A stretch of 64,000 nt of DNA from assembly GCF_056712565.1 (NCBI RefSeq), contig NZ_CM160072.1. One strand, given 5' to 3'. A program made the translations under genes and the position numbers. The notes beneath the pieces were generated by a model. It did not search any database. It worked only from the letters and a program-made list of their open reading frames with translations, and was not told the DNA's origin. Below, one piece after another: positions 38,120 to 62,335 of the stretch (its first letter is position 1; every line of letters begins with the position of its first letter).

Positions 38120-38315
38120 GCATATAGCCAAAATAACGTGAGCGGGTCCATGCCCGACAGAATCGTTACTCTCTCCCATCCGGACTCTAACCGTCGGCCC
38201 CGGAATTACACCGGATCTGCTGTCCTTTGAGTTCGCACCCAAAGCGCTCGCGGGCTTTCAACTGAGTTGATTTACCGCCGGTGGGGAATTTCGCCCCGCC
38301 CTGAGAATAAGCGGA
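38120..38315 (-). promoter_or_regulatory. FMN riboswitch (RFN element) in ribB 5' leader
   Basis: Minus-strand sequence contains ...GGGCGGGGCGAAATTCCCCACCGGCGGTAAA...CCGACGGTTAGAGTCCGGATGGGAGAG..., conserved FMN-aptamer blocks. Confidence 0.8.
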
Positions 38316-41749: not shown

Positions 41750-41895
41750 GGGAAAGCCCCTCCCGAGGAAGGGGCCTTATAGAAGGAAAGGGTTATGATG
41801 AAGTTCGTCATCATACTGGTTGTGTTGTTACTGTTAAGTTTCCCGACTTACTAACAACTCATCAGAGGGGGGAGAAATCCTCCCTTACCCTTGTT
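41750..41895 (-). ncRNA. sib: Sib antitoxin sRNA antisense to ibs (approximate ends)
   Basis: Minus strand opposite ibs begins near ...aagggtaagggaggatttctcccccctctgat..., a Sib-like 5' block; boundaries not determined. Confidence 0.5.
41795..41854 (+). CDS. ibs: Ibs-family type I toxin (19-aa hydrophobic peptide)
   Basis: atgatgaagttcgtcatcatactggttgtgttgttactgttaagtttcccgacttactaa encodes MMKFVIILVVLLLLSFPTY; yqiK-hldE intergenic, the remembered sibD/sibE locus. Confidence 0.7.
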   Translation: MMKFVIILVVLLLLSFPTY

Positions 41896-41973
41896 CCTTT
41901 ACTTTAGGTTGAAAAAACAACAGCGTCAATAGATCTGCCTGCTACGAAGCGAGATCTGTGAACCGCTTTCCAG

Positions 41974-48544: not shown

Positions 48545-49783
48545 GTGAAGATTTATCTGGTCGGTGGTGCTGTTCGGGATGCATTGTTAGGGCTACCGGT
48601 CAAAGACAGAGATTGGGTGGTGGTCGGCAGTACGCCACAGGAGATGCTCGACGCGGGCTACCAGCAGGTAGGCCGCGATTTTCCTGTGTTTCTGCATCCG
48701 CAAACGCATGAAGAGTATGCACTGGCACGTACCGAACGGAAATCCGGTTCCGGTTACACCGGTTTTACCTGCTATGCCGCACCGGATGTCACGCTGGAAG
48801 ATGATCTTAAGCGTCGCGATCTGACCATTAATGCGCTGGCCCAGGACGATAACGGCGAGATTATCGACCCGTACAACGGTCTGGGCGATCTGCAAAATCG
48901 TCTGTTGCGCCATGTTTCCCCCGCTTTTGGCGAAGATCCGTTACGCGTGTTGCGCGTAGCGCGTTTTGCTGCGCGTTATGCCCACCTCTGTTTCCGTATT
49001 GCCGATGAAACTCTGGCGCTGATGCGCGAGATGACCCATGCGGGTGAACTGGAACACCTGACGCCTGAACGGGTATGGAAAGAGACGGAAAACGCCCTCA
49101 CCACCCGCAATCCCCAGGTGTTCTTCCAGGTACTGCGCGATTGCGGCGCACTGCGCGTTTTATTCCCGGAAATTGACGCCCTGTTTGGCGTTCCGGCCCC
49201 TGCCAGGTGGCATCCGGAAATCGACACCGGTATTCATACCTTAATGACGCTCTCAATGGCGGCGATGCTGAGTCCGCAGGTCGATGTCCGTTTCGCAACG
49301 TTATGCCACGATCTCGGTAAAGGACTGACGCCACCAGAACTTTGGCCGCGTCATCATGGTCATGGCCCGGCGGGTGTGAAGTTAGTGGAACAACTATGCC
49401 AGCGTCTGCGCGTGCCAAATGAAATTCGCGATTTAGCCAGACTGGTGGCTGAGTTTCACGATCTCATCCACACCTTCCCAATGCTGAACCCAAAAACCAT
49501 CGTCAAACTATTTGATTCCATCGACGCCTGGCGTAAACCGCAGCGTGTCGAGCAACTGGCGCTGACCAGCGAGGCTGATGTGCGCGGCAGAACCGGTTTT
49601 GAATCAGCCGACTACCCGCAAGGCCGCTGGTTGCGCGAAGCCTGGGAAGTGGCACAGTCAGTGCCGACAAAAGCCGTCGTTGAAGCGGGATTTAAAGGTG
49701 TGGAGATTCGCGAGGAGCTGACCCGACGGCGGATTGCGGCGGTGGCTGGCTGGAAGGAACAGCGTTGCCCAAAACCTGAGTGA
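48545..49783 (+). CDS. cca: tRNA nucleotidyltransferase (CCA-adding enzyme)
   Basis: 412-aa ORF with GTG start, [16 protein letters not shown]..., HD domain. Confidence 0.93.
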
Positions 49784-49797
49784 GTGTTGGATATTTT

Positions 49798-49955
49798 GCC
49801 GGATGCGACGTAAGCGTCTTATCCGGCTACATGTCAACGACAGTTGTAGGCCTGATAAGACGCGCGAGCGTCGCATCAGGCGTTGATTGCCGGATGCGGC
49901 GTGAACGCCTTATCCGGCCTACGCAATCTGATAAGACGCGTCAGCATCATATCCG
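49798..49955. repeat. BIME: cluster of 3-4 REP palindromic units
   Basis: Alternating-orientation units gccggatgcgacgtaagcgtcttatccggc / gcctgataagacgcgcgagcgtcgcatcaggc / gccggatgcggcgtgaacgccttatccggcc. Confidence 0.85.
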
Positions 49956-49970
49956 ACACTGTTCTTCACA

Positions 49971-50792
49971 TCAAAAGAACACAACGTACACCGCAGCCGC
50001 CACAATAAAGCGATAAATGGCGAACGGGATAAACGAAATGCGCTTAATCAATTGCAGGAAGGTTTTAATCGCTATCAGCGCCACCACAAAAGCGGTGATA
50101 AACCCAACGGCAAACATCGGGATATCGCCGGTAGTCAGGAAGCCCCAGCTTTTGTAGAGATCGAGCGCCGTTGCGCCCATCATCATCGGCACCGCCAGCA
50201 GGAACGAGAACTCGGAAGCAGCGTAACGGCTCACCCCCATCAGCATCCCACCTGAAATGGTCGCCCCGGAACGGGAGAAACCCGGCCACAGCGCCAGACA
50301 CTGGAAACAGCCAATCATAAACGCCTGACGATAGGTCATATCATCAAGACCCGGCGCACGCGGCTCTTTCGGCTTCAGGCATTCGGCGGCAATCAGCAAC
50401 AGACCGCCAACGACCAGTGCATACATGACATTTATCGGGTTAAACAATGATTTAATCGTGTCGTGGAACAACAGCCCCAGTACCACCGCCGGAATCATCC
50501 CCAGCAAGATGTGGATCAGCGTTAAACGACCTTTGCTTTCTCCTTCGTGCTGCAACGGGCGACCAAAGTGGATGCCAATCAGGCCAAACAGACGCCGCCA
50601 GAACATCACTACTACCGCCAGAATTGATCCTAACTGGATCACGACTTCAAAGGTTTTCGCCGTGTCGCCCTCAAACCCCAACAAGTGACCGACAATAATC
50701 ATATGGCCCGTGCTGGATACCGGCAGAAATTCTGTCAATCCTTCGACCACACCCAATATTGCCGCTATCAGCAGCGAGTGCATATCGCTCAT
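49971..50792 (-). CDS. uppP: undecaprenyl-diphosphate phosphatase
   Basis: ORF 49971-50795; [30 protein letters not shown]..., recognised UppP/BacA. Confidence 0.92.
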
Positions 50793-50882
50793 CAATAAAC
50801 CCCTAAATTATAAAAATGTAACGCTTGTCCGAACTACTGCAGTATGACCAGGTTATAATCGTTTGGTTTAACAGCTGTAAAA

Positions 50883-61550: not shown

Positions 61551-61603
61551 TCGGTAGGCCGGATCAGGTGTTACGCCGCACCCGGCACTAGTCCCTCCGC
61601 ACA

Positions 61604-61630
61604 AACGCCACCTTTTCGGTGGCGTTTTTT
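61604..61630. terminator. rho-independent terminator after rpoD (bidirectional with mug)
   Basis: acgccacc-ttttc-ggtggcgt followed by ttttta; preceded by REP-like palindrome at about 61568-61600. Confidence 0.7.
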
Positions 61631-62135
61631 ATCGCCCACGCACTACCAGCGCCTGGTCCAGCTCGCGATACGCTTCAACCAGTTTCTCCAGTGAAACGCG
61701 ACTTAAACCGCTGGGATTTGGCAGCACCCAAATCTGCGTCGAACCAATGGTGAGAGTTTGTTTCCCCCACTGTGCACCGCGCTGGCTGAATCCCTGTTCA
61801 TATGCTTGTTTGCCCAGAATCGCCAACGCCTGCGGCTGATAATCTTCAATTTTTTCAATCAGCTTACGCCCGCCTGCGTGTAGTTCTTGCTTTGAAACTT
61901 CATTGGCTTGCACCGTTGGACGGTCTACCAGTTTGGTGACGCCACAACGATAATCCAGCAGATGCTGTGCCTCCTGCGGCTTCAACTGACGGTCGGTAAA
62001 CCCGGCCTGATATATCACCTTCCAGAAGCGATTTGCCGGATGAGCAAAGGGAAAACCAGTCCCGGCGGATGAAAGCCCAGGGTTGATACCGCAAAACACG
62101 ACCCGTAACCCTGGAGCCAAAATATCCTCAACCAT
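61629..62135 (-). CDS. mug: G/U mismatch-specific DNA glycosylase
   Basis: 168-aa [54 protein letters not shown]... Confidence 0.93.
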
Positions 62136-62259: not shown

Positions 62260-62335
62260 GGCCCCTTAGCTCAGTGGTTAGAGCAGGCGACTCATAATCG
62301 CTTGGTCGCTGGTTCAAGTCCAGCAGGGGCCACCA
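62260..62335 (+). tRNA. ileX: tRNA-Ile (anticodon CAU, lysidine-type minor isoleucine tRNA)
   Basis: 76-nt ggccccttagctcagtggttagagcaggcgactcataatcgcttggtcgctggttcaagtccagcaggggccacca with encoded CCA; upstream ttgcga-17bp-tataat promoter. Confidence 0.9.

Follow-up and report, generated by a model that had tools for sequence, protein, structure and literature searches.

A BIME-2-type REP array with an apparently chimeric relic unit between the 3′ ends of the convergent Escherichia coli genes cca and uppP

The intergenic gap between the convergent genes cca and uppP (bacA) is very probably filled by a BIME-2-type array of repetitive REP units in the order y-z2-y, with the relic of a fourth, apparently chimeric unit behind it; the array would serve 3′-end roles for both genes and would have been made by recombination. 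The array is a textbook example of a previously described kind of intergenic repeat and, as such, is already known. It was studied in a stretch of 64,000 nucleotides, referred to here as the window, whose source is Escherichia coli; the region from 49650 to 50100 is 100% identical to strain ATCC 11775.

The gap comprises all 187 nt from 49784 to 49970, and the two genes converge upon it from both sides. Upstream lies cca, encoding tRNA nucleotidyltransferase (48545–49783, plus strand, stop codon TGA at 49781–49783; ORF list and RefSeq annotation of ATCC 11775), and on the far side lies uppP/bacA, encoding undecaprenyl-diphosphate phosphatase (49971–50792, minus strand, an 822-nt CDS with its stop codon at 49971–49973; ORF list and RefSeq). 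The mechanical ORF for uppP starts at 50795 with a TTG (50793–50795), one codon upstream of the ATG chosen by RefSeq. The RefSeq annotation of ATCC 11775, the strain with 100% identity, places the same two genes around a gap without a CDS. The array is thus extragenic, fully enclosed by two stop codons, and REP units with their linkers make up about 86% of the gap. No intrinsic terminator, taken as a GC-rich hairpin followed by a T run, was found on either strand between 49500 and 50300 (0 sites), and the sole promoter-like site near the array is a weak 9/12 match on the minus strand that lies across the uppP stop codon.

A short spacer past the cca stop (49784–49796) leads into the first unit, U1, a y-type REP on the minus strand (TGCCGGATGCGACGTAAGCGTCTTATCCGGCTAC, 49797–49830) with a hairpin of −19.6/−18.9 kcal/mol and with its minus-strand GTAG visible as CTAC at 49827–49830. 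Between the cca stop codon and the first base of the U1 stem (49798) there are 14 nt (49784–49797). U1 matches the y consensus at 30/35 positions. A 15-nt tail-to-tail linker (ATGTCAACGACAGTT, 49831–49845), which is not the L motif of BIME-1, joins it to U2, a z2-type REP on the plus strand (GTAGGCCTGATAAGACGCGCGAGCGTCGCATCAGGC, 49846–49881) with GTAG at 49846–49849 and a hairpin of −22.1/−21.7 kcal/mol; U2 agrees with the z2 consensus at 35/37 positions and also aligns to the z2 half of the Rfam naRNA4 model. The head-to-head linker GTTGATT (7 nt, 49882–49888) is followed by U3, a y-type REP on the minus strand (GCCGGATGCGGCGTGAACGCCTTATCCGGCCTAC, 49889–49922) with CTAC at 49919–49922 and a hairpin of −21.3/−20.9 kcal/mol. 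Together with the preceding T (49888), U3 is identical to the y consensus (35/35), and it forms the y half of the naRNA4 match.

The fourth unit, U4 (49926–49957, plus strand), is degenerate and apparently chimeric. It lacks GTAG and its hairpin is weak (−6.9/−11.7 kcal/mol). Its left arm and loop (CTGATAAGACGCGTCAGC) are z2-like, with 19/21 positions matching z2, and its right arm (ATATCCGAC) is the one found in the intact REP of the single-REP alleles that other strains carry. By computed distance, a 13-nt spacer (49958–49970) separates U4 from the uppP stop codon. The orientation of the units therefore alternates minus, plus, minus before the relic. U1 to U3 are imperfect palindromes in the 30–40-nt size range of REPs, with hairpin energies between −19 and −22 kcal/mol whichever strand is folded, and their predicted hairpins contain, on both strands, an internal unpaired position or a 2×2 mismatch corresponding to the conserved stem mismatch of REPs. 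A preliminary description of the gap, made from the sequence, had proposed that a BIME of three to four REP units in alternating orientation lies between convergent cca and uppP; the REP pattern, the unit orientation and the naRNA4 score all agree with it, with three of the units canonical and the fourth weak.

Several further comparisons indicate that the repeats are real. The 13-nt REP core GCCKGATGCGRCG has three exact matches, all of them in the gap and none in the rest of the 64 kb. When up to two mismatches were permitted, the core occurred 19 times in the window compared with 7.9 ± 3.0 times in shuffled sequences, none of which reached 19. The tail motif CTTATCMGGCCTAC has two exact matches in the gap, and its sole other occurrence is a match with one mismatch at a REP near 61554. 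That REP is a single y-like unit (GTAGGCCGGATCAGGTGTTACGCCGCACCCGGCA, in the region 61554–61632) that begins 3 nt past the stop of an ORF ending in ...LRSFLDD, which we take to be the C-terminus of RpoD, and it is followed by a hairpin and T run at approximately 61603–61632. In a scan of the whole window, the Rfam model RF02564 (naRNA4) matched the y-linker-z2 pair formed by U3 and U2 (49849–49919, minus strand) with 83.1 bits against a gathering threshold of 59.5 (E = 2.8e-13), and weaker naRNA4 matches fell on adjacent unit pairs. Elsewhere in the window, matches at gathering level were a Sib antitoxin RNA (41780–41929, minus strand, 142 bits), an FMN riboswitch (38164–38312, minus strand, 121 bits) and a tRNA (62260–62332, plus strand, 73 bits). 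The RNA of the gap is predicted to fold at −95.4 and −92.3 kcal/mol on the two strands, compared with −60.9 and −58.8 kcal/mol for dinucleotide shuffles (z = −7.6 and −8.1). A query containing the array was found at a median of at least 38 places per genome among the matches listed, as in a high-copy repeat family. Alignment to the REP consensus, on which the preliminary description had staked its reading, was carried out, and the units do align to the y and z2 REPs of E. coli.

BIMEs have been divided into BIME-1, whose y and z1 units are separated by a long L linker, often with an IHF site in it, and BIME-2, whose y and z2 units are joined by short linkers and repeated in tandem, the remaining BIMEs being termed atypical (PMC3333891). 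Given its unit types (y and z2) and the shortness of its linkers, the cca-uppP array is of BIME-2 type, with the arrangement y - 15 nt - z2 - 7 nt - y, or 1.5 y-z2 repeats plus the relic. Among its closest known relatives is its orthologue in K-12 MG1655, the REP cluster of the cca-bacA gap (NC_000913.3 3203130–3203309), which has the locus and the flanking genes in common with it. The core, y - 15 nt - z2 - 7 nt - y, and the linker sequences are unchanged in K-12, as is the distance of 14 nt from the cca stop, but the fourth unit has no z2-like left arm there, and the gap measures 180 nt rather than 187 nt. U1 of K-12 has a G-C pair where U1 of the window has A-T, and U3 of K-12 carries one C-to-T change. 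The MG1655 RefSeq feature table returned for NC_000913.3 3200500–3204500 contained CDSs only and no repeat_region for this cluster, despite the three units in the sequence. The array also resembles REP325/naRNA4, a BIME-2 between yjdM and yjdN, in its alternation of y and z2, and the 77-nt naRNA4 model aligns end to end with the U3-U2 pair at the score given above. However, REP325 consists of 12 units in six tandem repeats inside an operon, whereas the window has three units and a relic between convergent genes, and the head-to-head linker is 13 nt in REP325 compared with 7 nt here. With the BIME-1/RIP element between yaaX and yaaA of MG1655 the array has in common an inverted REP pair in an intergenic gap; that element, unlike the array, carries a 35-nt L linker with an IHF site (ATTCAATATATTG). 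Finally, U1 to U3 resemble the substrates of the REPIN/RAYT (TnpA-REP) system, in which a 5′ GTAG and a two-base stem mismatch are needed for binding and cleavage by TnpA-REP (PMC3333891).

The gap was compared among 5,426 complete E. coli genomes, in which three classes of allele were distinguished. BIME alleles, defined as those of genomes covering at least 80% of the window query, occurred in 2,841 genomes (52%). The form of the window itself, with the U4 relic, was present in about 359 genomes (6.6%), LF82 among them. In the K-12 form, with its 180-nt gap, the y-z2-y core is kept without the left arm of U4, and a further BIME allele of 181 nt is close to the form of the window. In strain A10 the gap is 89 nt long with a single y unit, and this allele looks exactly like the product of a deletion between two direct y repeats. 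The number of units thus does vary among strains, as the preliminary description had proposed to check, with forms of 180, 181, 187 and 89 nt.

The two other classes carry different elements. An allele of 79–80 nt, found in 1,201 genomes (22%), holds a single intact z-like REP (GTCGGATAAGACGCACAAGCGTCATATCCGAC) preceded by an L-like motif. Aligned with L + z2 of the yaaX-yaaA BIME in MG1655, this allele matches at 41/50 positions in strain SA186 and at 39/51 in strain 148, and by this alignment the two are clearly homologous; no intrinsic terminator was found in this single-REP allele. The third class, a 162-nt allele present in 1,260 genomes (23%; for example strains 2013C-3277 and 1919D62), has no REP. 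It contains an unrelated repeat, an imperfect, GC-rich palindrome some 100 nt long that includes GGGGAGAGGGTTAGGGTGAGGGG and the G-run motif GGGTTAGGGTGAGGGG and that may belong to the box C family, which it resembles. The repeat is dispersed: at blastn sensitivity it matched a median of 16 places in each genome, and copies lie in the alx-sstT and gcvP-ygfF gaps. Its motif GGGTGAGGG does not occur as text in the RRS paper, and Rfam gave for this allele only sub-threshold matches of miRNA-precursor type, reflecting a long hairpin. One weak 5-bp terminator site on the minus strand of the 162-nt allele is at chance level. The folding z-scores of these alleles were −6.3 (79–80 nt) and −3.9 (162 nt), compared with about −8 for the window.

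Approximately 98% of the genomes carry one of the three classes, and about 124 of the 5,426 (2%) are unassigned. Some 45% of the complete E. coli genomes lack the array, so that its sequence in itself is dispensable. Going by recognised strain names, we presume that the alleles follow phylogroups, with K-12 and O157:H7 having the K-12 form, O104:H4 and O103:H2 the 162-nt allele, and LF82 and ATCC 11775 the form of the window. This pattern suggests old events followed by vertical inheritance.

The comparison of alleles also bears on how the array came about. Relative to K-12 and to the strain named ‘capsule spontaneous mutant 1’, the inner stem of U1 has changed from G to A at 49808 and from C to T at 49817, a compensatory replacement of a G-C pair by an A-T pair. 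A change from A to G in the U1 loop (49814) accompanies it. The compensatory change would fit a hairpin that has been maintained, or else a unit that was converted from another one. The spacer between U4 and the uppP stop is that of the 79–80-nt allele with its intact REP, and U4 looks like a recombination junction between a REP already present at the locus and a newly arriving y-z2-y-z2 array, which would explain why its outer stem is unpaired. Most likely the array arose and was resized by REP-specific recombination, either through TnpA-REP/RAYT or through homologous exchange between direct y units, rather than by selection of any one sequence. In vitro, BIMEs are cleaved and recombined by TnpA-REP, which requires both GTAG and the stem mismatch (PMC3333891), and U1 to U3 carry both. 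Mobilisation at the cca-uppP locus we infer from the comparison of alleles only.

Three other identities for the element were weighed. The preliminary description had placed it in a gyrase- and IHF-binding, transcript-stabilising class, and while the class as such stands, its IHF part does not. IHF binding is a trait of BIME-1, and although the wider class includes IHF-binding members and the array contains one match to the IHF consensus with a single mismatch (49876–49888, minus strand, at the head-to-head linker), we consider a BIME-1 (RIP/RIB) identity with IHF binding very improbable for the array. None of its units is a z1 unit, and the 15-nt linker has just 4 nt in common with the 35-nt L of the MG1655 yaaX-yaaA BIME. 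Matches to the IHF consensus with at most one mismatch number 73 in the window compared with 57 ± 7 in shuffled sequences, which leaves the lone match in the array at chance level, and the L-like motif at this locus is confined to the 79–80-nt alleles of other strains, to which IHF binding may apply rather than to the array of the window. The IHF consensus scan and the comparison with a real L motif thus led us to reject this identity; a search of the literature for the L-motif sequence string returned no match. It is somewhat less improbable, though still doubtful in the extreme, that the array encodes a discrete naRNA4-like RNA that binds HU, bridges cruciforms and condenses the chromosome. 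About 80% of REPs have been reported to be transcribed (PMC4550694), and the naRNA4 match at 49849–49919 (minus strand) is above the gathering threshold. However, the model was built from one y-z2 unit of REP325 and fits any y-z2 BIME, so that at the level of sequence a score above gathering shows y-z2 architecture and does not demonstrate a discrete HU-binding RNA. In addition, the linker here is 6 nt shorter than that of the model, the nearby promoter-like site is weak, and a 2026 preprint that shares an author with the naRNA4 paper finds no measurable role of REP325/naRNA4 in compaction (bioRxiv 10.64898/2026.03.23.713779).

That the gap contains real genes is scarcely conceivable. Four mechanical ORFs of 41–78 aa run across the REP repeats, as was to be expected from the preliminary description, which had attributed several spurious small ORFs to the BIME, and none of them is called as a CDS by RefSeq. 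The 78-aa ORF (49780–50016, plus strand) is present in NCBI as EGI25957.1, deposited from E. coli TA206 as ‘ribonucleoside diphosphage reductase 1, beta subunit, B2’. Against its being a gene, this protein is the single member of its cluster and comes from one contig; the name has evidently been transferred and is wrong, and the record is evidently a mis-annotation derived from a REP. The remaining three ORFs are absent from a collection of 15 billion proteins, RefSeq has no CDS in the gap of any strain inspected, and the ORFs are disrupted in other alleles of the locus. Coding potential was rejected on the combined results of the ORF list, RefSeq and the protein collection. Labelling the element as a REP/BIME repeat region would prevent gene calls on ORFs that cross it, although this has little importance beyond annotation.

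The function of the array at cca-uppP we infer, at every step, from what has been described for the REP family. Transcripts of either gene would enter the array and fold into stable stem-loops, which could block 3′-to-5′ exonucleases, so stabilising the two mRNAs, and could terminate part of the transcription with the help of Rho. In this way the array would be a 3′-end element of both cca and uppP and would limit convergent read-through. The preprint already cited describes REP hairpins as blocks to 3′-to-5′ exonucleases and as partial, partly Rho-dependent terminators, and reports that about 30% of convergent gene pairs have a REP, with both genes more highly expressed (bioRxiv 10.64898/2026.03.23.713779). 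In the same preprint, 78 REPs are placed within catalogued bidirectional terminators of convergent genes, nearly 40% of the REPs in such gaps, and the variance is described as large, with terminal REPs not generally tied to longer mRNA half-lives (bioRxiv 10.64898/2026.03.23.713779). A second effect could concern translation. Where a REP lies no more than 15 nt from a stop codon, the gene upstream of it can be translated less efficiently (Liang et al., 2015, summarised in PMC12306157). Because U1 at 14 nt falls within this published limit, it could mildly reduce the synthesis of Cca through ribosome stalling; the U4 relic lies 13 nt from the uppP stop. Finally, in duplex DNA the y/z2 pairs are plausible cleavage sites for gyrase. 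Gyrase cleavage was found to be enriched in ‘a subset of BIME-2’, mainly at y units (PMC6379681), an analogy to be read in light of the presence here of only 1.5 y-z2 repeats. The text of the published Topo-Seq supplements contains no entry for cca or bacA.

The main rival to a hairpin barrier at the 3′ ends is neutrality, that is, that the array is a selfish REP/BIME cluster mobilised by RAYT which sits in a permissive gap and has no measurable effect on cca, uppP or chromosome topology. We regard this as a serious possibility but the less likely one. The locus is multi-allelic, with a BIME, an unrelated repeat or a single REP in different genomes, and the array is missing from nearly half of them. 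U4, without its GTAG, is decayed or chimeric, and the effects of REPs are context-dependent and often nil according to the preprint (bioRxiv 10.64898/2026.03.23.713779). Nevertheless, every sampled allele has kept a strong hairpin element, as seen in the folding z-scores, and none of them has a convincing intrinsic terminator. The compensatory change in the U1 stem and the higher expression, genome-wide, of convergent pairs that bear REPs (bioRxiv 10.64898/2026.03.23.713779) likewise argue against neutrality.

Taken together, the alleles place three hairpin-forming repeat elements in one gap between housekeeping genes; the BIME and single-REP elements are both members of the REP family. The alleles could serve as natural swaps with which the terminator-plus-stabiliser model of REP function can be tested. 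Somewhat speculatively, and with a probability that we would put below that of neutrality, the gap may require some strong bidirectional hairpin element, a need that is met by different repeat families in different lineages. If this is true, Cca and UppP would be expressed at levels that depend on which natural allele is present, and the cca-uppP locus would offer a ready-made allele series on the action of REPs in 3′ untranslated regions.
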